Positions 22,826-37,654 of a stretch of 64,000 bases of DNA are shown here, in pieces. The notes under the pieces are model-generated. The model did not search any database and was not told the DNA's origin. It worked only from the letters and a program-made list of their open reading frames with translations. The first letter of the stretch is position 1. Each line of letters begins with the position of its first letter. This DNA is from Curvularia clavata (taxonomy: Eukaryota), in contig CP089275.1 in NCBI GenBank assembly GCA_023920165.1, forward strand, positions 62,001 through 126,000, read 5' to 3'. A program made the position numbers and the translations under genes.

Positions 22826-24160
22826 TTAAAGAAGAACACCAACAGAGATCCAAGCTCTGCGAACAATCTGGGCTCCCGCAACTCCAAAGAGCCTGGTGGC
22901 GTGATCAACCGTGATATCAGCCCATTGCTCGAAATTGATGTCTTCCCTAGGAACCCTGGCGCGCGGGTCGGTCAGTGTGGCATACCAAATTCTACCAGCT
23001 GTCAACCAAGCCAACCCGCCGAAACCAATGGCAACCAAGTAGAACGCGCGGTTGGGGATACCTGAGGTAATATGAGGACCCTGGGCGTCGTTATACTGGC
23101 TGCTATGAGAGATCTGGGCGTCGCGGCCTAGAACAAGGTCGTCGAATGCAGTTCCTGGGTGGCAATGTTGCGAAGGGCTGAGCCCTTAATAGCAACAGGG
23201 AACAAGTTCTGTCCGGTGAGCCAATCGGCATCAGCTGCAGTCCGATTGAAGTGCCATTGCTAAACCAAGGCAGCAAAAACGTCAGAGATGGACTCATTCA
23301 ATCCTCCAGCTTGCTTTGTGTAAGCAATCCCAGCGGTGTACTGAGTAATGGCGTGAGTCAACTCGTGTGAGACGACATCAAGTGAACTCGTGAAATGATC
23401 GAATATGATACCATCACCATCTCCAAAAGCAAACTGAGAACCGTTCCAAAATGCATTGTTAAATCCAAGAGGATTGCTCGGCTCCGGATCATGATGGACA
23501 GTGACAATAGGATTTGTGCCATTACCATTGACAGCATTACGACCAAACACGGTGTAGTAGAATTGAACAGTGATGCCAACACCGTCGTAAGCGTAGTCTA
23601 CCTGTCTGTCTTTTGTTCGATGAGCCCCTTCCGCGCGAGCGAGGGTGCCTGGAAACGCGCCGCGGCCTTCTCCATCGTATATTGCACGCCTCAGCACGAG
23701 CGCTACAGCTCCAGGATCATGGGGCTCGTCCGTCGCCGCAGGACCAACGAGAGCAGTTCTCTGTTCGCGTATCTTAGCATCTGACCTCAACGTTGCCCTA
23801 GTACTCTCTCAAATCTCTTCATCTGCCAGCTCGCTCTGGGTGATGTTCTCGAGAATTCCAGGTGGGACAAAGCCTGAGCTTACAATTGGTGCTTGGGCGG
23901 CTTAAATATCAGAGCCTTCAAGCGTAGTAGGCGCTTCACTGATGATGAGGGATTGCAAACCCTTCTCGCGAAAGTCCTGGTCGATTGAGAGGGTCTGAAT
24001 AGCAGCTTGACGTGCCTCCTCTGGAGTAGCCTCAGAGTTAGCAATATGCTGGAGGACCTACGCAGGGACGAGGTGACACGTCTATAACCAAGAAGTTAGT
24101 ATGCTTCGAGAACAAGAGTCCTGAGGGTCCTGCAGCCCTAGCCTGGTGTTGATTGCACAT
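22826..24160 (-). pseudogene. Protealysin-like M4 (thermolysin family) metallopeptidase pseudogene
   Basis: NNAFWNGSQFAFGDGDG, HELTH, GGLNESISD, PHITSGIPNRAFYL; in-frame stops at 24058-24060, 23902-23904, 23809-23811 and 23260-23262; 1-bp frameshift near 23158. Confidence 0.88.
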
Positions 24161-25421
24161 GAGGAAGGTTCGTAAATACTTTCCTTAATAAACAGTTCCA
24201 AAGAAGACTTTCAATTCACAATGAACTTGAGATTTGACGATGTTTAAATGATGGTGTGAGGTGTGATCTTCGCCAACCATGCCCTTTATTCATACCTTAA
24301 TCGTTCGGACCCCGTCAGCCATGGCACTGAACTTGGCTGCAACGCCTTTCGCATCTCCAGCACATGATGTCTTGACCCAGACCAAAAGCAGCGCCTCGTT
24401 AGTCACCAAAATAACTCCTGCAGTACGCAATTCTGTTACCATTCCCCCGATCGGTTGTCTCATAGCAAAAACATGTGATAATTTTGCAGGAAATCACTCA
24501 GCAGTACTGCATTTTGCAGTCCAGCCCACTTGGCAGCCGCCGAGCTGAATATGGCCAGCTAATGGCCATGAACGACCAAACAATGAGCCAAATCTTGGCA
24601 ACGATAACCTCCAAAATGATCTGTTTCGCTGATTCAAACCTCTTTATTGTTTGGAAAATTGGCTCTGCTAGCTGAAGTAAACTTGACTACACGCAAATGA
24701 CTTCGATTTTAGGTTTTGAGGTTGCTACAGGTGGCTGTTGTACTTACTGGTCAAATATCGTCTCGTCATCAGCCTATACTTGGGCATGTGGTTATAAATC
24801 GTTATCTGGATAACTAGGTCAGAGGATGCTTGTATACTAAAGCCCTTTCCAGTCATTCTGACAGAGATCATTAGTAGCAACATCCCCTCTGACTAGTCAA
24901 GAAAGCATTCGTTCGGCTGATGACTGCTAAGCCAGTCATCCAAGTAACTATTCATTACCCCAAGACCCAAACAGCCAGATTTCCATAAAGCAGCGGAGCA
25001 AGAGCGCAGTACGCTGACTGTGTAACCAAGATTACGGAGTCCTGCATCATGTTACATAAATTATTCTGCCCTGACCTGTGTTTGGATGCCACCACCTGCT
25101 GCCTAGTAAATCTTGACCGATAACGAGCCTGAATGGAGGACAAAATTCAGCTTGGGCGGGGTTTACCAATCTGATGAATTCCTTCACTCGGTTCTGTCGA
25201 CCGGAATGCGAGTCTTTCAGCCGCAGCTGAACAACAAATGCAGATCACGCAAGCCCACTGGGACAAACCACAAACAACAACCCAAAATCTCTATTGTTAA
25301 AAAATAAAATTTCTTACGCAGCGTTATTCAAACCTGATAATTATTTCATTGCTGCTGTGCAACATTGCTCGGCCACGTCAATTTCCATACAACTAGCAAT
25401 TCTTCTCACGATTTAAATAGT

Positions 25422-26234
25422 ATGGAGTCTTATATGGTCCCCAACTTCGAAGTCAAACTTCTCCTCAACCCCTTAGTGGTTCTAGGATCTGAAGGCAAAC
25501 TCAAGAACGATGTTTTGGCAGCCTTCAATATCTCTCAGAGCACCAAGAAGATGAATGTCCAATTTGTAGACACTGCAAAGAAAGACATCTACAACAGCGG
25601 CTGGAGCCTTCGCATTCGTAAAGAAGAGAATGCCGACAAGTTCGAATTGACGTATAAGAAGCGATACTTGGTCAATCAAGGGTATTCAACCACCACCGAG
25701 GAGAACATCAACGCAGCGCTCAACACGGCCAAGCAGGACGGTTTCGACTCCACTACCTCCTACAATGCCCAAGTGGAGGTGGGATACCAGAAGCAGACCC
25801 TGTCTATCAGCCTCGATAAAAAGAGACTCGACAGTGGTTTCTCAGAATTAGAGATGCCCAAAAAACAAAAGTCGCGCGATTTCCTCATCGAAAAAGCTCC
25901 CGATAAGTTCAAAGACTGGCAAAACAAAAGTTGGGGCACTCAGCATCTCGAGACGTCTATCATCTATGGACCAGTTCTTGCAAAGCGTTCCAAAGGTACT
26001 TTCGATGAGTTCACTCTATCGATTGAAGTGTGGTAGATTCGGAAGAGCAAGGAAGATGAGACTCTGGACCCCATCGTTGAAACTTCGTTCAAGACCCCCG
26101 ATTTGATTAGGGCGTTGGATGGGCGGGCTAAGCTTCAGGATTTCCCGAAGGACAAAGACTGGTTTCTTCCTGAGGATTCTTTGAAGACAAAGCTTGTCAT
26201 GGAACGGTACGGACAAACCACTTCGCGTCTTTGA
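25422..26234 (+). pseudogene. CYTH/triphosphate-tunnel-like hypothetical protein interrupted by one premature TAG
   Basis: PNFEVKLLL, GWSLRIRK, ELTYKKR; after TAG 26034-26036 the frame continues IRKSKEDETLDPIVETSFK...WFLPEDSLKTKLVMERYGQTTSRL* to 26234; intronless. Confidence 0.65.
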
Positions 26235-26902
26235 TGGATGGTCTCATCTATGCGACTCGATGTACATAGTTGGTCATCCCGTCTGGCGTTTTTGAAAAAG
26301 GGAGATTGCCTGTTCAAAGTACAAAGCTTTACCGCGGCGACGATAGCTCAATAGACTAATCCGACCTGCAAGCTGACAAGTGTAGAAACAAAATCGGTTA
26401 AGGGGGCCTTATAAGTCTATTGATTAGTATAGAAATGAATTACCATAACATTGATCATCTGTGAGCTAGTCCACTGTTGTGCTCTAAATTGGTATCAGGT
26501 GCATCCACTGCTCTGGTAACATTGTTAAATGATATTAAACAATGACTTTCTTATGAAACTGCAGACTCGCCTGCATGATCATCTGATAAACCATATTACG
26601 GATGATATTAACCCTAGTAATCAGGACCCTTACCCAAAGTGGATCACCTACAGGCTCCTGATGCGCGGGACACCACCTCTCTCGATACCTATACCCGTGA
26701 CACCGCTGCAGGATCTTGCACGTCACAGTATCGCTTGTGTCGGAAACATTATACTTAATTATACTATATGACTATTGATCACAGCGAAAACAAAGTAGTG
26801 GGGTGGTGCTTACAACTCATTCGCCACGGAGCAGCTTGTTACCTCAATTACACACCAGTCACATGTTAGGAGCCTTCGTATGCTCTTCATAGAACTCGGT
26901 CT

Positions 26903-28633
26903 TCACAAAAAGCATCGTTCCAATGCTCTGACCACCGAAAGGTAGAACGCTTCCTGGACAGTCTCGGGCTGCCCGGTCTCTCCTACACATAAATCACTCT
27001 TCAAGCATAAAGAGGTTGCCTCAGCAAAAGCATCGCCCATTCGGAATTTGATGCGTGGTATCGTATCCAGGAAGACTTCTCTAAAGCCTTCCCCTTCGTG
27101 CGTGTGATCTGCCACAGATCGGTCGAAGATTTGCGATGCAGTCAACCAAAGACCAATTTCCATCATCAATACACCAAAGCTATACAAATCCGCTTCGTAT
27201 GAGAAAGGTTGATGACCCTGAATATTCGTGTCGGTCGAGTCGTTTTTGGTTAAGGGGAGTCCTTGATGATCTGGATGTCGGTATAGATTTTCGAACCTGT
27301 CATCTCCTACGTTCTGCGTCAATCTTTGGACTGCAAACGTTCGACTGTACTCAAAGCCTCCAATGAAGGGCTCACAAAGATCGACATTCGAGATATCATC
27401 TGCCAAGAAAAGAATGTTGTCGCTTCGGATACCCTTGTGAAGCCAACAGCCAAGATGAAGGAATAAGAGTGCCTTTGAGAGCGTTTGGATGAGCTTCAGT
27501 ACATGGCTCAGGGACTTGGCGGCAAATGTTTCATCCATAAGCAGATCGAATAGTGTAAAGACATGTTTCTTTTCGTCCAGCTTGAAGATGAGCCCGTATT
27601 GAGCATCTTCTTGGGGAGGGACGGGCATATCAACTACTGCAATACAGTCAAGGGTGCGAAACTCTTTAGGCTTACTTGCTGAATGCAGCAACAATCCCAG
27701 GTCGTGAATGTGATCGTGCAATCCGTCTTTGACAGCGGGAGACAAAGTGTTTGGAATCATTCTCCACTCGATCAGTACTTGTGTGCTAGGTATGTCATGC
27801 GCCCTAAATGTGGCGAGACTGCGTTTTCCTGTCGATCGTCCTATGGTAACCACGCTCTGCTGATGCGATATGCCTCGATGGCTCCTCATTAATTCGCGAC
27901 CACGGAGAGCCTCTGCACGATTGGCCATTTCTGAAGCCGCAGCTGTGAAGCTAGCAATGCTTCCTACTATCTCCGCTGCTAGATCTCCGGCAAAAGCATC
28001 ATGCACGGCCCTCGATGCCGCCGCATTGGGGGCTGATAACAGTTGTTGGCTGAATACCACGGGTGCAAGGGGGTCGACGGCCGGAGGCACAAAGAAGTCT
28101 TCAAGCTCCCTCACTAGCGTTGCGACTTGGTCGACCATTTGCAACCCTTTACCCCCTCGACGAGCCCATCTCCATCGTTGAATGATGTTAGCGTGGTTGA
28201 TGGAAGTAACTTCCTGTTGAAGCTCCTTCAGTTGCAGAACTCCGGGGGCGTCTGCTTGAGCAATCTCAGCCAGCTGCGCCACGCGTTGAGCCGAGCCTTG
28301 ATCCTGTGGTAGTACCGCGCTCCTGAACAGCGAAGGGAACTTCCTTTCGAAGTTTTCCATTGCAGTCAGGCGGTGTTGAATTATCAGCAAGTATCTGACA
28401 GCAAGGAATCCATACTCTCGAAAACGTCGATTTTCCAGATGTCTGCGTTCCTTGAGCCCCCAATCGAGGGCCCACGATTTGAGACGCGCCCGTGTCATGT
28501 CAAGTCTGGTTTTTATAACAACAACATCCTCACCAACTTCGTTGGCACTCTTCCACAGATCAATCACGGTAATAGTGGTGTCCACGACTTGGAAGACGAA
28601 ACCTATCACTCCAAATGCTTCCAGTCCGGACAT
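26903..28633 (-). CDS. HeLo/HET-S-like N-terminal domain + C-terminal pseudokinase (MLKL-like architecture), 576 aa, intronless
   Basis: N-terminus MSGLEAFGVIGFVFQVVDTTITVIDLW...RLDMTRARLKSWALDWGL resembles HeLo; C-terminus VLIEWR, FRTLDC, WLHKGIRSDNILF, IGGFEYSR, NLYRHPD, ADLYSFGVLMMEIGLW is a kinase fold lacking HRD and DFG. Confidence 0.85.
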   Translation of the reverse strand: MSGLEAFGVIGFVFQVVDTTITVIDLWKSANEVGEDVVVIKTRLDMTRARLKSWALDWGLKERRHLENRRFREYGFLAVRYLLIIQHRLTAMENFERKFPSLFRSAVLPQDQGSAQRVAQLAEIAQADAPGVLQLKELQQEVTSINHANIIQRWRWARRGGKGLQMVDQVATLVRELEDFFVPPAVDPLAPVVFSQQLLSAPNAAASRAVHDAFAGDLAAEIVGSIASFTAAASEMANRAEALRGRELMRSHRGISHQQSVVTIGRSTGKRSLATFRAHDIPSTQVLIEWRMIPNTLSPAVKDGLHDHIHDLGLLLHSASKPKEFRTLDCIAVVDMPVPPQEDAQYGLIFKLDEKKHVFTLFDLLMDETFAAKSLSHVLKLIQTLSKALLFLHLGCWLHKGIRSDNILFLADDISNVDLCEPFIGGFEYSRTFAVQRLTQNVGDDRFENLYRHPDHQGLPLTKNDSTDTNIQGHQPFSYEADLYSFGVLMMEIGLWLTASQIFDRSVADHTHEGEGFREVFLDTIPRIKFRMGDAFAEATSLCLKSDLCVGETGQPETVQEAFYLSVVRALERCFL

Positions 28634-29515
28634 GGTCACTCGTTGAATATGGGCCACTGATATCCTGTTCGGTTCGAGGTTGTAAGAAGCTGAGAACAAC
28701 CGCAGTGTTTGTGAGACTATTCTTCGCGAGTGCGCCGAGCTGCGGGGTTGTTGAGTGCTTTCCACTACCCCGCATCTTCAGCCGCACAAAGGCACCTGAG
28801 AGGCTATCAGAGCTATTATACCTGGGCACATGGTTACAAGATGGTTGTCTGGATAATTGGCTGAGCAGATGTTAGCGTACCGAATCCCTTTTTAGCCAAT
28901 TAGATAGAAATTATTAGTCACAAGATTCTCTCGTATTAGTTAGCAAAGGCTTTGATACCTTAAGGTCTGCTTTACCAGTTACCCAGATAGCCATATTGTA
29001 ACCACGTGCCAGCATGGAGCTATTTATGGAGATGGCGAGGTCGGATACGCTGACAACTCAGCTGAAGAACCCAGATCCAAAAGGTTCTGGGCGTCATTTT
29101 GTGATGGCCATGCCTGGAGACCTGCCAATAGCTGCGATGGGAGCAACGCGGAAGGTTTGGGCATGCAGCTCATGGCGCTGGATACTAACAACAAGCGCAT
29201 GGCCACTTCAGCCTACTTGCAGGGAAGGACTGAATGATGCACTTGGAGCTAACATCATATTTTCTGTCATAAAAGAAGGGATAATCATAAAGAGGTCACC
29301 ATCTGTAATGGTCTAAGCAACATTCACATACTGTTAACGCTATTCCTATAGGGTATAGTGTCGTTTTCACCATATATAGCTCTCTCAGCTCACACAGCTT
29401 ACGACACGCGGCTTTTTTTTCATACTAATCTGACCCTCTGATCTCCACGCTATCCCTAGTGTAAGAGTGAAGCATCCTGTCAATCAGCCTTTTTTTCTGT
29501 AATGTGTCTCAAACC

Positions 29516-32500
29516 ATGGCACAAACATCCAACACATCGCGAGATTTCACTTTCAGTCTGCATTCACTGCTTAAAACAGCCCTTGATGCTATTGGAGATC
29601 GCCCATGGCTCCAGATGGAATTGCTTGCAAATACTTGCATCGAGGAGAAGGTGTTTGAAAAAGAATCACCTCTGGGAGTCGGTGGCTACTTTTACATCCT
29701 ACGGAGCCAGCCCTCTGATCTCCTAAAATATGTCGATTCGAAGCTGAAGCCCAGCATGATCCATCGATTCACGCTTCTGCAATATAATACTGTCATCCTA
29801 CGAACGCCGAAGAGCAACCTCGATCAGCATACCGCCGGTGGTCAACGGATACTGGACTCTCTGGCGACTGAGATCCAAATACTTAAGGACGAGCGGCTCA
29901 ATAGCCACCCAAATATTGTTGGTCTTCTTGGTCTATGCTGGGAGTTTGGTGGTGGCTCGCGCCAACTTGCGATGCCTGTAATGGTCCTTGAAACTGCTGA
30001 AGCTGGCGATTTATCCACGTACACGCAACGGACGTCAAAATTAGGAGCGCGAGACAGGCTGCGTCTAGCAATACACTGCTTTGAAGGGCTTCGTGCAATT
30101 CATAATGTCGGCGTCATTCACGCAGACATCAAACCCGAGAATGTCTTGATCTTCACAGATACCAACGGCAGGCCTCACGCAAAGCTTGCTGACTTCGGAT
30201 GCTCCATCCTCTTAAACGAGGTTGATACTTTGACACGGCTGGAATCAGGAACACCGCTGTGGCAGAGTCCGAGGGTCTCTGATGCACTCAATGCGCAACA
30301 ACTCCGCGCAACTGACACATATTCATTGACGCTGGTAACTTCGCTCTTGTTGATCGGATACCCCATGTATGCTGTACTCGAAAAGGTAGTGAAATCTGGT
30401 GATGATGGAAAGTCTCTGGACGAACTCAAGGCCGAAGAAGGAGCCCTCGCTACCCTCATCTTGAGGATGCAAAGAGAAGCCGACGAATTGCAGGAGAAAT
30501 GCTTCGATAAAGATGTCACTGCACTTGTTGCAATGTTCTTCCGCGTAGGAGTGTCACTTGACGAGGAAGTAGCCATTGGTGGAACCGATCTACCTCTCAG
30601 GCTGTTGAGAGTGATGCTGCATCGTGAGATCGTAATCGCGGTAACAAGAGACGCTCGGATTCATGATACCCTAGATGAGCTTGAGAAAGATGTCTACCTC
30701 TGCCCAGGTGAGGGTCATCGGAGTCAACTAAGAAGTTAACATGTATCCTAACCATCTCAAGATATATTTGGCATAGGGTTGGGCGAAGTGGACGAGATTG
30801 CACGTTGGTACACTGCCGCGACAGACATCAACCAACAAGCAGACCCGGAGTCACCTGTGCCTCTGCTTCATCACCCACATGCAGCCGTGTCAAGAGATCA
30901 TACCAACAGAAGAAAAAATACGAAATTTCAATTTCCAAATGCAATAAACAGTGGTTCACCGTCGACGGCATATCTGAGGCGACCTCCGCTTGCGGAGAGC
31001 ATCATATCGGTGAGGACAAGTAGCTCAATCACAGTATATGCTGACAGATCTAGTTCAACCGCTATTTCAGCAGATTAAGGCGCCTACCAGCACGAGTCTC
31101 TACGGATCTTCTTGTCTCACTCCGCCAAATCGCCAACTCTGATCAGCTTGACAAAACTCTGGGTGGCCTCGCTTCTTACGAAATGGCGGCATTCATCATT
31201 GGAAGCCACAGGATAGCTCCCACTGAAGACCAATCGCTTCAAGACGAATCGCTTCAGGATGCTGGCAAATATATCCTACAGGCTGCGAGGATTGGGCATG
31301 CAGCTGCTCGTATCCATTTTGGGACAATACTGGACTGGATCGGCATTCCAAACCCCATCGACAAGGACGTTGAGGCCAGCTGGTGTTATATGTCTGCTGT
31401 GGCGGATAATCTCTGCGCGTCATCCAGATTGAAGCTTCTAAGCCCAGCGAGACACATCGAAGCGATGCAAGAAAGGGTTGACCTGGTGGCCTCCAGTATC
31501 CTGAGTTCCCTTGTCATTTCGTGCGCATCGTCGGATCAAGAATTCTCTGAAAGTGCCTTTCTTCAGGGGAGTCAAGAGCTAATGTCTTTTATTCCTGATA
31601 TCTGCCTCTATTTGGTTTGCAAAAGCTGGCATCTCAGTTTGAAGGTGGTTCTTCAACTACCTGGTATTGACGTGGATATGGATCTAGGCACGCATTCGTC
31701 GCTTCTCCTTTGTGCTTGCCAGAAGGGCGACTATGTGATTGCAAGGCTTCTCATTGAGCATTTTGCAACTCCTAAAGCAAACTCTGACGGACTCACGCCT
31801 CTACATTACCTTCACCGCTTTCCAGACGATCAAATTCTTCCAATGGCAAAGCTGCTAAAAGACGCGGGCGCGGATCTCGAGGCACGGTGCGAACTGCAGA
31901 CACAGTGTACCATCGGACAAACAGATCTGTCTGACACTCTTCTGAGTGCAACGGCACTTCTGTTTGCAGTTGCAAATCGCAATCTCCTTGCAGTCTCTGC
32001 TCTCATTTCCCTGGGCGCAGATCCATTCAGTGGCGCTAAGCCCTACGAAAAATACGACAGCGATATGTCCGCTAAGCAGAACGGCCGGATATATTCCCCT
32101 GTACATTATGCTGCACGATTGCATCTATCAGACATATTGCAGGCGATGCTGCCAGAGAACAAGAAATGTGAGCAACTCTATGACTGGATGTGCTATGAGA
32201 CAGAAACTTTGAAAGTCACACCTCTGTGGTGCGCAGTAGACTATTGGTATCAAGGTCTGTGGGATCGGGTCCTCCTTCACGGCCAGGATCATATCACGCA
32301 ATGCAAGAAGACCATCGACATTCTCCTAAATCGTGGCGCTCAAGGCCATTTTGTGTGCTGGGACACAACTACGCATGCTCGTCAGTCAGTCTTCACAGCA
32401 GCATGCCTCTTCGGACAACCTTTCGTGTTGAGCTATCTACGCACCCTGGGTATGGAGCCTTCAACCAAGAATTTGGTCATGACTTTGCAAAATGCGCTTG

Positions 32501-33861
32501 AGGCTGAGGACTCCAAAGCGATTGATTATCTACTACCCATCGCTGAAAAAAGAACATCAAGCTCAGAGCAGAAATATGAACTCAAGGCATCTATTCAAGG
32601 CCATAAAACATCGGACTACCTCGAATATCTCTACTGCATCAAAGAAAAGCTCGAAGCAAATTCCGAATCAAATCTTGGACTGAAGCTCGTTCGTGATGAG
32701 AAGCTCGCGGAAGTCATTGGGCCGGATGATGGCCGTAATATCTTTCAGCAGAAAATCTCTGGCGGTGGTTTTAAAATGACGTTCACCTTCAGGCCTGGTC
32801 CAGGAGGCCATACAGTGATGGAACCTGAGGGTGAGCCAAGCACGATGCCACCAAAAGGTACACCTCTATCATCGAACCAAGACGAGAGTCACATGTCTGC
32901 TTTCGAGCTCGCTGTCCTAGGTGGCTATGAAGATCGCGCTCGCGAGCTATTTGAGAAGGAGCAGTGCGACACGCTGTGCCGAAGAACAGATGAAAACGGC
33001 CAGACTACGACGCTCATCGGCCGACTCATTCAAAAAAGCAGGCGTTATTCAGCGGCGGACAATCACGTTTTGTTTGTGTTGAGATTGACGCCACCGAGCC
33101 ATGAAGAATTCTTTGATGCAGTAGCGGAAAGCGATTCCCCCAAAGGCCAACGCCTGACCATCCTTCATCTCGCTTCGGTGCTCCCGGAGTGGGCTCTTAC
33201 CTACACCCCAAGGGCTCCGCGTGCGATCATTTCCGAAATACTAAACAAGTACTCTGGGCCAGATCACCTCAACGCGATCACAGGTCCCGGCTCCGAATCC
33301 GTCGCAGCCCTCCACCTAGCCGTTAATTCGGGAAATCTCGACGCGTTAAAAGAACTCGAGTTTGAAGCCTTGGATTGGAACATTGTCGACGGGTCAGGTT
33401 GCACGCCCATGGATGTGGCGGGTCTGCGCCAACAGAATGTACACAATTTCTTACAGAACACACGCAAACTCTCACGCGATGAAAACCCCGCATCCTACCG
33501 CGACTCTGTCAACGAGTATCGATCCAATGTTGTTCGTATGCAAAAATTGCTAGTCAACAAGGGGGGCAGGCACATCAAGTACGGCGGGTTCATGTACCGC
33601 CGTAGTGAAGACATGTGGGAGCTAACAGATTTCCAGAGTTTTGTCTGTCGGGAGTTGCCGGTGATGGAACATCTGGAATTTATCGAAAAAAATCAGGCAG
33701 ATTGGAAGAGTCCGGCACGGAAAGCACATGTGGAGAAACTGCGTTCATGGAGTAGGCTCGAGGTTGACGAGAGTATGCTTTGTCCGCTTCTGCCACAGCC
33801 TCCAAGTAGTGCAGATGAAACAGAGTCTTCTGCAGACCATCATGAAACACAACCAATATGA
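29516..33861 (+). CDS. Protein kinase + SEL1/TPR-like helices + ankyrin-repeat protein (~1415 aa, 3 exons)
   Basis: Exons 29516-30707, 30762-31009 and 31054-33861 splice in frame (4248 nt); LGVGGY, HPNIVGLLG, HADIKPEN, KLADFG; repeats such as DGLTPLHY, TALLFAVANRN, SPVHYAA, TPLWCAV, AALHLAVNSGN, GCTPMDVA. Confidence 0.85.
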
Positions 33862-34230
33862 GGCGGCGAAAGAGGCCTCAGTAGCGCCAAGATAGGCTTC
33901 GTGCTACAGTTTTGTACCATATTCAGCTATGTTGTACTTTCCAATTCGCAAACTCTAAGGCCTCTAATTCATAATGAAAGAGACTCAGTATTAGTATTGA
34001 CTTGATATTAGAAGTCTTATATTGCTTCTACTCAGGACACTACTCTTAACAAGTACGTCTTGCCCCTTTAAGCCTACACCACGCGGGACGTCACCTAGCT
34101 AGCACGAGTAACTTATATAAAGTAGCAAGGAGAATTTTCTCCTGGACAGCCAATGCGAAGTTGGAAGCCAATCAGCGGCTACATCTAAAGTTACGGATCA
34201 TGGCGAGGTGACGATCACGTGATCTAGACT
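33862..34230. repeat. Degenerate dispersed repeat, copy A
   Basis: Begins GGCGGCGAAA...GCGCCAA; the first ~95 bp align by eye at roughly two-thirds identity with 37877-37970; both copies have a downstream ATCACGT..CTAGACTC. Confidence 0.45.
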
Positions 34231-35040
34231 CCTGCCAAGAGCTAGTCTCCCGCCAAGAGCAGAGGAGTATATCCCAAGCCCTGTGTAAAACATATAGTGA
34301 TACATTTCACAGCATTTTGTTAGTATCTCTAGCCATTATTGGCTGAGACTTTATGCTTAGTCGGGCCGTTACCCAGTCGAAACCATTTGTAACAACAAAT
34401 CGGCCCTACCTATCAATCAAGCTCGAGTCAGCCCAACTTGTCAACCAAATCTAAGAATACTAAGGAATTCGTGCTCGACGAGGCTCCGAACTAGAATCAT
34501 CATATAGCGCATTCAACAAACGGTGCTAAAATTAGAATGGCACCCATAGGTAGTACACCTTGTCATCTTTGTTGCAACAGTTTGATTTAGACTAAGACTA
34601 CAAGCTGCAGTGACCTCAGTAAATGCCCATAGAAGCGGGCGTCAACAGGGCTCATGTTTTTTTCCAGGCGACTCATCCTTTCATCTCAATCCTGCAGTTT
34701 GCATAATCAAAAGTTCAGATATCTGTTCTGCCAAGCGTATATTTCTGGAGGAGGATTTTGGGGTTGTCTCGTGCAGGGTTAACTAGGGGTCGCGTTGTCC
34801 TCGGACCGAATACGATGTGGGCTACATGATATGGAACGAGGCAATAGCGATAGTAGCTATACCAGTATGAAGAGCTAGAAAGGTATAAAAGTTGAAGTTC
34901 AGCCGTCTACATATCTACTATACATTCAGTTCATATCATCTTCGTTTCTTCATCTTCAAAGGTCGCCTCTTCTTCTCTTTAACGCCTTCCATTCTATTAT
35001 CAAGCTCTATTCTTCAACTTCAAGTCTGTGACTTTTCAGC

Positions 35041-35649
35041 ATGCCTTCTTTCACCACCATCATCGTCGCAGTCGCTGGCTGTTCTGCTGTCGTCAATGGT
35101 GCTGCTGTCCCTTCAAAGAGCGGCCTTTCCTCTATCTCTCTCGAGGCGCGCGGCGACAGCCTCAGCAAGCGTGAGCCAGTCACTACTGCTATTCTCCTTG
35201 CGGCTGGTACCGCCGCTGTCAGCGCTGTAGTCACCGAGGCCATCGGCGCCGCTGCTAAGTTCATTGGCGACGTCTCCAATTTCGATTCCGCTCGCGAAGC
35301 CTTCACTCAGCAGACCACCAAAGAGATGATGGCTAGAAACCCCGATCCTGCTCGATTCCAAGCCGCCGCCTGCTACAATCAGGGCTTCTCGGTCGCTGAC
35401 CCCGCCAACATCGATGGACAGAATTCCGTTGAGTTCAAGCTTGGACTTCTCAACACCGACTACGAGTGCATGTATATTGCCGCTCCCAACCAGTTCTTCA
35501 CAGAGGGTGACGGTGGCTTCATCAACGTGAGTCTCAACTGCACCCAGAAACTTATGAGAACCTTAATTAACAACAAAAAACAGCTTTCATTTGAACACAC
35601 TGATCGCTGCACTTTCGATAAGGCTACTGCTGATCTTACTTGCGTCTAG
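35041..35649 (+). CDS. Small secreted cysteine-containing protein with Kex2-type propeptide (~183 aa after splicing); candidate effector or toxin
   Basis: Signal peptide MPSFTTIIVAVAGCSAVVNG, LSKR processing site, TATAAAA near 34885; in-frame 57-nt intron 35527-35583 (GTGAGT...CAG). Confidence 0.85.
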   Translation: MPSFTTIIVAVAGCSAVVNGAAVPSKSGLSSISLEARGDSLSKREPVTTAILLAAGTAAVSAVVTEAIGAAAKFIGDVSNFDSAREAFTQQTTKEMMARNPDPARFQAAACYNQGFSVADPANIDGQNSVEFKLGLLNTDYECMYIAAPNQFFTEGDGGFINVSLNCTQKLMRTLINNKKQLSFEHTDRCTFDKATADLTCV

Positions 35650-36865
35650 ACGACTACACACAAAGATGTCAAATGGGATGTAATATCACACGCTCAATAA
35701 GATTTCTCTAGTGTAACGAAGTTACTGTATAGTAAATTGTACCAAACCCTCCGTAGCTGCCGGGCCTGGATTAGTACCAGCCCAAACCAGATTAGTATAA
35801 AGACTGGGTGCGCTGGTATCTTATTCTGTAGATTTCTGATATTCTTTCGCACAAGACCTATAGATATCTAGTTGAGAATTCAAGCCTATTCCAAGATTCC
35901 ATATATTTCTATACGTCTCTCAGTGATCCTACTACCAGATCGAATCTGATCAGTCTTTCCTTCGCCGTTACTGAACAATCATGTACTAGCATATGCCAAG
36001 GCATCTAGGTGGATTCAAGGAGCGATGCGATACCACCTGCGGTTAGCCTTGAGCTACTAAGTTCTTCCAACCAGTAAAGCTCAAATGGAATGATTGATTG
36101 TGTAAAGCGGAAGCGAGCGGGAGAGGAACTTTTTTTTTTTTGATTGGATAATCATTTGTTAGTGATTTACGGTCGTGATTTAAGCGCCAGCAACGGAGGG
36201 TATATAGAGGTGAAGTCCTCCAGCACAAGCGAGTATTCTCAGCTGCTCCTCTTCCCCTTCTTCATTCGCTTGGCAGTGACTGTGCTACGATAGTGGATGT
36301 AATCTGTGGGATGTGGTGATTTGTAGCGGAGCGTAATAGAGAACCTCCTAACGCACTAGGTATGAATGCAATTATCGAGTGTCGGGTTAGAGCTGTGAAA
36401 CATGGGACAGAAAGTCCACATTGATTAGCCATCCTTACAATAGAGTCGGGCTGTGATATAGTGCAGTAGACAGCAGCCCCATAGAAAGACCGTAATAAAT
36501 TACTATTCAGCAACTTTTCGATTCTTTGCGAAGCTAGCGCTGCCCGACTCCATGAAGATCAGTTTGTGGCTCTTGGAGTTGTTGGCTCGTTAGGATTTTT
36601 ATAAACCATGATAGGCAGAAGTTACTACGGCACAGCGAGTCATTGAAATGCGCCACTCGCTTGCCATGCACTTTACAGGAAAGGCCTGAAAGCATTGCTC
36701 GTTGCCTACACTGGTAGCTGCGTTACCCCGCCTGACCACACTCATCAGACTACAAGATTCACGTCGGTTTGCAGCACCGGTATAGACAATCGCATCACAG
36801 GCATCTCTGTCGCACTACATACATAGAACGAGCCCTGATTCGTCGTCTATTACTATCAGCTTACT

Positions 36866-37654
36866 ATGTACAGTGCTCCGCCTGGGTTCCCACCGCCACC
36901 GCAGCAGCCGGCACCTCCGCCATCAGGTTGGACCGAGCATCTGTTCTACACAAATGGGAAGGGAACGCCGGCCTTTGAAGCGCTGATGAAGGAGTTTTTC
37001 GTCAAGCTTGATCCTAGAGGTACAGGGTACATAACCCCTGAGGCGTTTTCAAGCTTTTTGGAGGCCTCGCTTGTTAAGGATACAGATAATGTTTGTAAGT
37101 CAACCTTCTTTTATACGAAATCATCGGATACCATATAGATCCTAGGAAGACCATGGCTAACGGATGGCACCATGCTTTGACCCGTAGGGAAGAGAAGTCT
37201 CAACGACAGTGGCATGTACTCAAAAGAAGACATGGCAGACTTTGAGCTCAAGGCAGCAATTGAAGGGTTCTTATTCGACCACAAGGTTGTAGTGCGCAAC
37301 CCTTCCGCGAAGCAGCTTTCATATGGAGGCATGCCTCTACTCAGCTTGGCTGGTTTTACAGACTTCATGTCAGTCGAATATGCAGCGGATCCAGACAACG
37401 TTCTACCGGGAATCAACAATGCCTTGCGCGTCTACAACATTTGGCCCGAGCGTGGACCCTTGCCGCGCTATGCATTCCCCGCTAGAACGCCGCTTGAGCT
37501 ACAGCAGCGTCTTGATCAAGCAACGCAACGTTGTGCAGCGAATGCAAAGGAAAAGCTGAGAGCGAACCAGGCAAGGATTGACTTAGAGCTACTAGGCCAA
37601 CAGAATGCAGTGGATTTGATCGACGGAACCCGCAGGTATTATAGGTACTATTGA
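36866..37654 (+). CDS. Hypothetical protein with Pro-rich N-terminus and an EF-hand-like loop
   Basis: FVKLDPRGTGYITPEAF EF-hand-like motif; intron 37095-37187 joins NV|WKRSLNDSGMYSKE. Confidence 0.75.

Follow-up and report, generated by a model that had tools for sequence, protein, structure and literature searches.

To our knowledge, two controls of regulated cell death have been described in fungi so far: the amyloid templating of HeLo/HELL domains by NOD-like receptors (NLRs), and the cleavage of gasdermins by proteases. A divergently transcribed gene pair at positions 26,903 to 33,861 of a 64,000-nucleotide stretch of Curvularia clavata contig CP089275.1 (GCA_023920165.1, positions 62,001 to 126,000 of the forward strand; this whole stretch is called the window) is compared here with those systems and with the RIPK3-MLKL pair of necroptosis. 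Gene 1 encodes a HeLo domain followed by a pseudokinase, and gene 2 a kinase domain followed by ankyrin repeats. Recurrent linkage, congruent gene trees and conserved motifs argue that the pair has been kept together as a two-gene unit. We hold it to be fairly probable that this unit consists of an executioner (gene 1) and its dedicated controller (gene 2), whose engagement would cause regulated cell death.

In the available part of PMC6013482, MLKL orthologues are described as carrying GFE at the place of DFG; in human MLKL, HRD is replaced by HGK and DFG by GFE, and the RIPK3 substrate residues T357 and S358 sit just behind GFE. Gene 1 is alike in that a bundle of the HeLo/four-helix-bundle (4HB) superfamily is joined to a C-terminal pseudokinase that lacks the HRD aspartate and has GFE for DFG, with a separate kinase as the presumed controller. 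Unlike RIPK3 and MLKL, the fungal genes are physically linked and divergent, their controller carries ankyrin repeats and no RHIM family (E ≤ 1), and the order of K and G differs (HKG in gene 1, HGK in MLKL).

Fungal NLR/HeLo-HELL amyloid pairs such as NWD2/HET-S likewise place a repeat-bearing sensor next to a HeLo executioner (PMC10197012, available part), and the HeLo domain of gene 1 is homologous to that of HET-S. In contrast to that type, the window pair and the related loci are without a NACHT, NB-ARC or amyloid-motif family, the appendage of the executioner is a pseudokinase and not a prion-forming domain, and the effector domain of the sensor is a kinase. Gasdermin/protease pairs (HET-Q1/HET-Q2) also combine a sensor-enzyme with a pore-former, the enzyme frequently carrying WD40, TPR or ANK repeats as a fusion (PMC12881547, available part); here the enzyme is a kinase instead of a protease and the executioner a HeLo-pseudokinase instead of a gasdermin. 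The comparison suggests a cell-death switch of the sensor/executioner type, akin to the known ones, with the kinase-ankyrin controller as its novelty.

The fungal architecture of a HeLo/HELL domain with a kinase or pseudokinase has already been noted as 'reminiscent of MLKL', with no partner gene named in the text available; the conserved kinase-ankyrin neighbour is new. In the accessible sections of PMC12881547 a broader exploration of HeLo/4HB proteins is called for and no partner kinase is named, and those of PMC10197012 and PMC9815663 describe NLR-linked HeLo domains and not a pair of a kinase and a HeLo-pseudokinase. No description of the pairing was found in the open full-text literature searched, where 'DUF7580', the Pfam name of the pseudokinase in relatives of gene 1, was likewise unmatched.

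Linkage and shared descent of the two genes

Close homologues of both genes were confined to the same narrow set of organisms, namely Penicillium samsonianum, Rhexocercosporidium, about twenty Fusarium species and JGI and Logan records. In one species after another, the contigs that carry the two homologues had equal lengths. Identity to gene 1 was 80% in Penicillium samsonianum and 70-90% in the JGI and Logan records. Rhexocercosporidium reached 63% for gene 1 and 59% for gene 2, and Fusarium 54-59% and 52-56%, respectively. The orthologues are neighbours in six Fusarium species, with adjacent locus tags in F. gaditjirri (10707/10706), F. anthophilum (1597/1596) and F. verticillioides (13221/13222, two strains) and consecutive accession numbers in F. 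denticulatum, F. phyllophilum and F. tjaetaba. They are near-neighbours in Rhexocercosporidium, where the accession numbers are two apart and the annotation of the ankyrin protein lacks the kinase part.

More distant relatives were obtained by scanning metagenome contigs with a profile (A1) made from an alignment of 31 gene-1 homologues. This yielded 48 loci at 26-43% identity to gene 1, which fell into 36 clusters at 90% nucleotide identity. Clusters were considered informative if 1400 nt or more lay upstream of the point where the gene-1 relative was estimated to start (n = 19), and a kinase gene lay on the opposite strand within 2.5 kb upstream in 16 of them; on the downstream side, used as a control, a kinase was present in 1 of 23 informative clusters. 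The sequence-only reading of this DNA, which had proposed the pair, expected homologues to be linked in other genomes, and the divergent arrangement does recur in Fusarium and in these metagenome clusters. The exceptions were L017, L037 and the loci L034-L036. In L017 and L037 the gene-1 relatives carried a DUF7580 or kinase-like domain, and HeLo was undetected by Pfam. The relative in L034-L036 had a weak HeLo match (E 3.7e-4) and its kinase lay 5.7 kb upstream. That upstream gene is a kinase-ankyrin gene, and the many short open reading frames (ORFs) in between, which are without a Pfam match, could be an insertion that split the pair.

On the partner side, a Pkinase match followed by ankyrin repeats was found in 10 loci (nine clusters), and in five further partner loci the contig ended ahead of the C-terminal half. 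One partner (L021) was a 960-aa ORF with a kinase and no ankyrin match. Gene-1 relatives were scanned in 15 of the 16 paired clusters (L038 was left out), and HeLo was detected at E ≤ 2e-4 in 12 of these; the match was weak in L044 (E 0.0096) and HeLo was undetected in L039 and L045. Flanking genes varied among 10 loci, with no recurring third gene and no NACHT among 56 flanking ORFs. Likewise, neither NACHT nor NB-ARC was found in 46 partner-side ORFs of 19 loci.

Metagenome loci were placed solely by the likeness of their gene-1 relatives to named proteins; those of L001 and L005 were 85-87% identical to Pleosporales proteins and that of L008 was 68% identical to a Cordyceps protein. A word-index search of named genomes for distant kinase-ankyrin partners brought up, besides the Fusarium orthologues, no more than a single Hypoxylon kinase-ankyrin protein and two further proteins, and the taxonomic breadth rests on the metagenome loci for that reason. 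With these placements, the pair spans at least four Pezizomycotina classes (the Penicillium-like window, Rhexocercosporidium, Fusarium, and the Pleosporales-like and Cordyceps-like loci). The pair is patchily distributed: the Penicillium-like window falls together with Rhexocercosporidium and Fusarium (54-63% identity), and the Cordyceps-like L008, whose order is that of Fusarium, stands much further away. Such a pattern points to several old paralogous lineages of the pair, to horizontal transfer, or to both.

Trees of both genes were built from 20 pairs (the window, eight Fusarium species and 11 metagenome loci); Rhexocercosporidium, with its kinase part lacking, the other Fusarium species and loci with short ORFs were left out. 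The two trees had 11 of 17 splits in common. Their Robinson-Foulds distance was 12; under label permutation it averaged 33.7 and never fell below 30 (0 of 2000 permutations reached 12). Patristic distances were correlated with a Mantel r of 0.91, or 0.86 with one Fusarium kept, a value reached in 0 of 5000 permutations. The congruence anticipated by the sequence-only reading was thereby borne out, and it indicates that partners have not been swapped between lineages.

The family is large: at E ≤ 1e-30 it comprises 1794 clusters (50% identity). Two further proteins had other architectures. P0159 is a single chain of 1027 aa with a strong Pkinase match (aa 95-368), HeLo (aa 458-606) and DUF7580 (aa 823-1022). 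The pair may be fused in this protein, whose kinase is only generically like the partner kinases. P0248, from Fusarium floridanum, has 1582 aa and combines a long TPR array with two domains of kinase type, of which one overlaps a DUF7580 match, so that DUF7580-like domains are also fused to repeat sensors without HeLo. In two unrelated loci, ORFs of the fungal-specific kinase family PF17667 were seen at a distance of about 9-10 kb from the pair, and L025 also carries a PD-(D/E)XK nuclease ORF (L002:20560-21477, L025:15423-16226 and L025:11888-13831). This may hint at mobile or accessory regions.

Domain make-up of the two proteins

The features of gene 1 are as follows.

26906..28633, minus strand: gene 1 coding sequence, 576 aa, intronless open frame; ATG at 28633, stop codon at 26903-26905
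27989..28633, minus strand: HeLo domain, aa 1-215; Pfam PF14479 and profile match to HET-S/HET-s
28550..28627, minus strand: N-terminal hydrophobic helix, aa 3-28; present in the full-length and domain models
26906..27841, minus strand: pseudokinase domain, aa 265-576; kinase fold, named DUF7580 by Pfam in relatives
27431..27439, minus strand: HKG replacing catalytic HRD, aa 399-401; in A1 H 31/31, K 31/31, G 28/31
27341..27358, minus strand: GFEYSR replacing DFG, aa 426-431; in A1 G, F, Y, S and R each 31/31

A protein 100% identical to gene 1 is on record, and orthologues were found at 54-90% identity. The N-terminal part matched the HeLo family PF14479 over aa 6-182 (E 8.8e-13; score 49 bits, cut-off 23.2). 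Positions 1-215 of the A1 profile matched the N-terminal domains of HET-S/HET-s among solved structures (2wvo, E 2.2e-13; 2wvn, 6.4e-13; 2wvq, 8.7e-13). We take the domain, from these two matches, to be a HeLo domain homologous to HET-S. The protein is at its most hydrophobic over aa 6-24 (a 19-residue stretch, mean Kyte-Doolittle 1.83), inside the first helix, which is putatively able to enter membranes. HET-S is described as a HeLo cell-death effector, and HeLo proteins such as HET-S as acting in allorecognition, in the available part of PMC10197012.

The C-terminal part of gene 1 had a sub-threshold Pkinase match (E 0.007, aa 348-504), and PF24476 (DUF7580) was detected in the gene-1 orthologue P0006. 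Behind the HeLo part, the A1 profile matched the kinase domains of B-Raf, KSR1 and IRAK4. In the AlphaFold model the pseudokinase had a pLDDT of 80-93 over most of its length (loops 430-444 and 458-473 were below 50), and its Foldseek matches were kinase folds, e.g. RIPK1, IRAK4, JAK and B-Raf. Among the 31 sequences of A1, the third position of GFE was E in 24 and D in seven, and the beta-3 lysine position held K in 19, I in seven, R in four and M in one. S430 and T439, behind GFE, were kept in all 31 and are candidate phosphosites only. The block N-L-Y-R-H-P-D-x-Q-G-x-P was invariant or nearly so. A kinase fold with neither catalytic aspartate, conserved over 26-90% identity, argues for a pseudokinase under selection.

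The features of gene 2 are as follows.

29516..30707, plus strand: exon 1, N-terminal region and kinase domain; Pkinase match
29801..29803, plus strand: Arg96 at the beta-3 lysine position; V-I-L-R, against VA[VI]K or IA[VI]K in six distant partners
30119..30127, plus strand: HAD catalytic-loop motif of a non-RD kinase; HGD, HAD or HCD in partners, Asp invariant
30708..30761, plus strand: intron 1, 54 nt, GT..AG; joint 30705>30760 (cut +2) in X1, X4 and X9 contigs
30762..31009, plus strand: exon 2, linker; continuous in frame and covered by spliced contigs
31010..31053, plus strand: intron 2, 44 nt, GT..AG; joint 31008>31053 (cut +1) in X1 and X4 contigs
31054..33858, plus strand: exon 3, 935 aa, helical region then degenerate ankyrin repeats; stop codon at 33859-33861; Ank_2, Ank_4 and Ank matches
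31645..33423, plus strand: ankyrin-repeat region, exon-3 aa 198-790; best Pfam stretches aa 198-277 and 748-789

With the two introns removed, the protein has about 1415 aa and ends at 33858. Exon 1 gave a Pkinase match over aa 114-334 (E 5.5e-25), exon 2 matched no Pfam family at E ≤ 1, and exon 3 matched Ank_2 in four stretches (E 1e-16). Orthologues of exon 3 were 52-90% identical and covered 93-98% of it. The catalytic-loop Asp, Lys and Asn (D204, K206 and N209 in gene 2), the DFG motif (D226-F227) and the alpha-C Glu (E119) were all invariant across the partner kinases. G, A or C precedes the catalytic Asp, so these are non-RD kinases. Gene 2 does not have the full RIPK3-type catalytic residue set: it keeps the HxD Asp, the Asn, the DFG motif and the alpha-C Glu, and has Arg96 for the beta-3 Lys. 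No DNA-level tandem repeat array was present in the ankyrin region.

Much of what the sequence-only reading had said of the proteins held. It had described two intact, divergent genes around an 882-bp spacer, with which open frames, start codons and spliced contigs agree. Its HeLo-like helical domain with a hydrophobic first helix was recovered by the Pfam and HET-S profile matches and the maximum at aa 6-24, its pseudokinase by the modelled kinase fold and the HKG and GF[ED]YSR motifs (conserved in 28-31 of 31, or as E/D), and its HAD catalytic loop is read directly from the sequence. It had also seen neither NACHT/NB-ARC nor an amyloid motif, and no NACHT, NB-ARC, RHIM or other amyloid-motif family was found in either gene at E ≤ 1 in Pfam, which short motifs can escape. 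For gene 2, the kinase and ankyrin families were confirmed and the count of about ten repeats was not, the repeats being degenerate. The SEL1-like helices were not recovered, no Sel1 family matching exon 3 at E ≤ 1.

Transcription and neighbouring sequence

Contigs of public runs were compared over window positions 24000-37000, the runs X1, X4 and X9 coming from three studies. Both introns of gene 2 had been predicted from the sequence beforehand as GT..AG and frame-preserving, and were then seen as exact gaps in contigs; X1 and X4 contigs skip both and X9 contigs the first. The runs are not on record as RNA, and the contigs are taken to derive from spliced RNA because of the GT..AG joints here and in neighbouring genes. 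Gene 2 is spliced and hence transcribed. Gene 1 is covered by contigs at 26814-28923 (X1) and 26814-28779 (X4) and by short contigs in X9. This cover fits transcription of a gene that, being intronless, is without proof by splicing. Between the two genes lies the following region.

28634..29515: divergent spacer of 882 bp between both start codons, putatively a shared promoter region

X1 contigs enter the spacer up to 28923 and from 29298, with about 375 bp uncovered, and contigs of this kind cannot fix transcript ends. An alternative joint (33578>33637) that would truncate gene 2 was seen in one X1 contig, with 30 letters on the shorter side, and was taken as minor or spurious.

Beyond the stop codon of gene 2, X1 and X4 contigs run on through 33637-34900, with GT..AG splices at 34053-34125 and 34548-34608. 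Once spliced, this stretch contains no long open frame; it would be either a 3' untranslated region of gene 2, long and intron-bearing, or a non-coding RNA in its own right. At 35032-35649 lies a DUF7888 gene (E 9e-53), with a GT..AG joint (35526>35584) in X9. Just beyond the 3' end of gene 1, an ORF at 25341-26036 has a weak CYTH match (E 7e-5) and is covered by X1, X4 and X9 contigs. Among the 27 window ORFs of at least 150 aa, no transposase or recombinase family that would indicate carriage by a Starship or transposon was found.

Proposed mechanism, alternatives and meaning

In the mechanism we favour, the HeLo domain of gene 1 would be held in check by the C-terminal pseudokinase, in the layout of MLKL. 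The ankyrin-repeat half of gene 2 would be the sensing or scaffolding part, and its kinase domain would engage the pseudokinase of gene 1. Phosphorylation of the invariant Ser/Thr behind GFE would be the obvious route where the partner keeps the beta-3 Lys; in the window's orthogroup, engagement may perhaps be by binding alone between two kinase-fold domains. The HeLo domain, once freed, would attack the membrane, and regulated cell death would follow. Protein contact, phosphorylation, the sensed signal, membrane damage and cell death are all steps that we infer.

Several findings weigh against this mechanism or its likeness to necroptosis. The window and each of the 20 Fusarium orthologues that extend over the site have Arg in place of the beta-3 Lys, as against Lys in all six distant partners whose N-lobe lies inside the ORF, and the glycine loops are degenerate in some Fusarium orthologues. 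Kinase catalysis is consequently doubtful in the window's orthogroup; Arg96 argues against simple phosphotransfer there, and less weight is therefore placed on phosphotransfer and more on regulated binding. The controller also departs from RIPK3 in that the partner-kinase profile, compared with solved kinases by sequence, was nearest JAK, LRRK2, ZAK/MLT, IRAK4 and DAPK. MLKL was not among the 60 best solved matches listed for the fungal pseudokinase, with the A1 profile or with the C-lobe alone, and B-Raf, KSR1 and IRAK4 were at the top. Gene 1 is therefore classed as MLKL-like in architecture and not as an MLKL orthologue, striking as the likeness of motifs is.

The N-terminal domain had low confidence in the full-length AlphaFold model, with which Foldseek returned only kinases. 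A separate model of aa 1-250 (82 sequences) was all-helical with a pLDDT of 74; its four best Foldseek rows were HET-S/HET-s, yet at E 0.07-0.19 and TM 0.31-0.42. In a wide structural search with VIA-align, potato Rx CC (Z 9.0), HET-S (2wvo, Z 8.2, 119 aligned, rmsd 3.1), barley MLA13 (7.9) and MLKL (7.6 and 7.3) were accompanied by unrelated helical bundles that scored equally. The modelled fold is consistent with a HeLo domain, its match to HET-S and MLKL not being above chance for helical bundles, and membership of the HeLo family rests on sequence because the fold scores are no better than those of unrelated bundles. The congruence of the trees, for its part, is also expected from shared species history and would be evidence of co-inheritance, not of co-adaptation.

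The controller may be a trigger or a brake. As a brake, the kinase-ankyrin protein would constitutively bind or phosphorylate the HeLo-pseudokinase, and death would follow loss, inhibition or titration of the controller, by a guard or toxin-antidote logic. Linkage and co-divergence fit such an arrangement equally, contigs of the same runs cover both genes (an apparent co-expression without cell killing), and a kinase with Arg at the beta-3 position could still bind its partner. It is nevertheless an unlikely reading with some claim to be kept in view, as known fungal pairs of a repeat protein with a HeLo protein or gasdermin are described as activator and executioner (PMC12881547, available part) and RIPK3 activates MLKL. 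A role in signalling without death is improbable. The pair would then serve membrane or ion signalling, trafficking or development, with the HeLo-like domain as a membrane anchor or regulated channel. Conservation, expression under ordinary conditions and the very large family agree with this. The matched HET-S, however, is described as a cell-death effector (PMC10197012, available part), and the hydrophobic N-terminal helix that is key to its membrane attack is kept in gene 1. That the genes are mere neighbours sharing a promoter, functionally uncoupled, is very hard to credit. Divergent pairs are common in compact fungal genomes, but this pairing and its orientation recur at 26-43% identity (16 of 19 clusters, against 1 of 23 on the other side), the flanking genes are not conserved and the two trees are congruent.

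The sequence-only reading had further cast the pair as an allorecognition module with allelic diversity, and strain comparison spoke against that part. As a heterokaryon-incompatibility locus, the pair would have divergent alleles that trigger death at cell fusion, in keeping with the role of HeLo proteins such as HET-S (PMC10197012, available part). Two close strains, X1 and X4, were compared with the window. X1 differed at 6 of 2110 letters in gene 1 (0.28%) and 17 of 4184 in gene 2 (0.41%), X4 being alike, as against 7 of 1038 (0.67%) and 7 of 838 (0.84%) in flanking transcripts. The genes thus differ less than their flanks, and neither strain has a highly divergent second allele. Substitution classes were counted among the differences listed (40 of 113 over four runs). 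For X1 and X4, gene 1 had two non-synonymous and four synonymous differences, and gene 2 had one and five in the kinase exon against eight and two in the rest (Fisher p 0.035, small numbers). This non-synonymous excess behind the kinase exon is what a fast-evolving recognition surface would give, and favours allorecognition to that extent. The ankyrin region is, on the other side, without a DNA-level repeat array of the hypervariable type, and most genes of these families are not het genes, according to the available part of PMC12881547. Allorecognition is accordingly a quite improbable function for this locus.

The executioner-controller reading is therefore the one carried forward, and of the necroptosis-like, kinase-coupled module first proposed from the sequence, the linkage, the HeLo domain and the pseudokinase stood and the allorecognition half found no support. 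A wider claim is put forward only tentatively: that this is a widespread fungal death pathway independent of NLRs and amyloids, in which a repeat-domain sensor kinase directly licenses an adjacent MLKL-like HeLo-pseudokinase. The GFE-type pseudokinase could then mean common ancestry with MLKL and not convergence.

A co-inherited kinase-ankyrin partner gives the MLKL-like architecture of fungi a candidate upstream regulator, and the question of a kinase-controlled, necroptosis-like pathway in fungi becomes a two-gene experiment. Given that the pair occurs in plant-pathogenic Fusarium and Penicillium-like moulds and belongs to a large family, it could have a broad role in fungal immunity or development. 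If the wider claim is true, the way in which necroptosis couples a kinase, a pseudokinase and a helical bundle would not be limited to animals: it would also exist elsewhere as a portable cassette of two genes.

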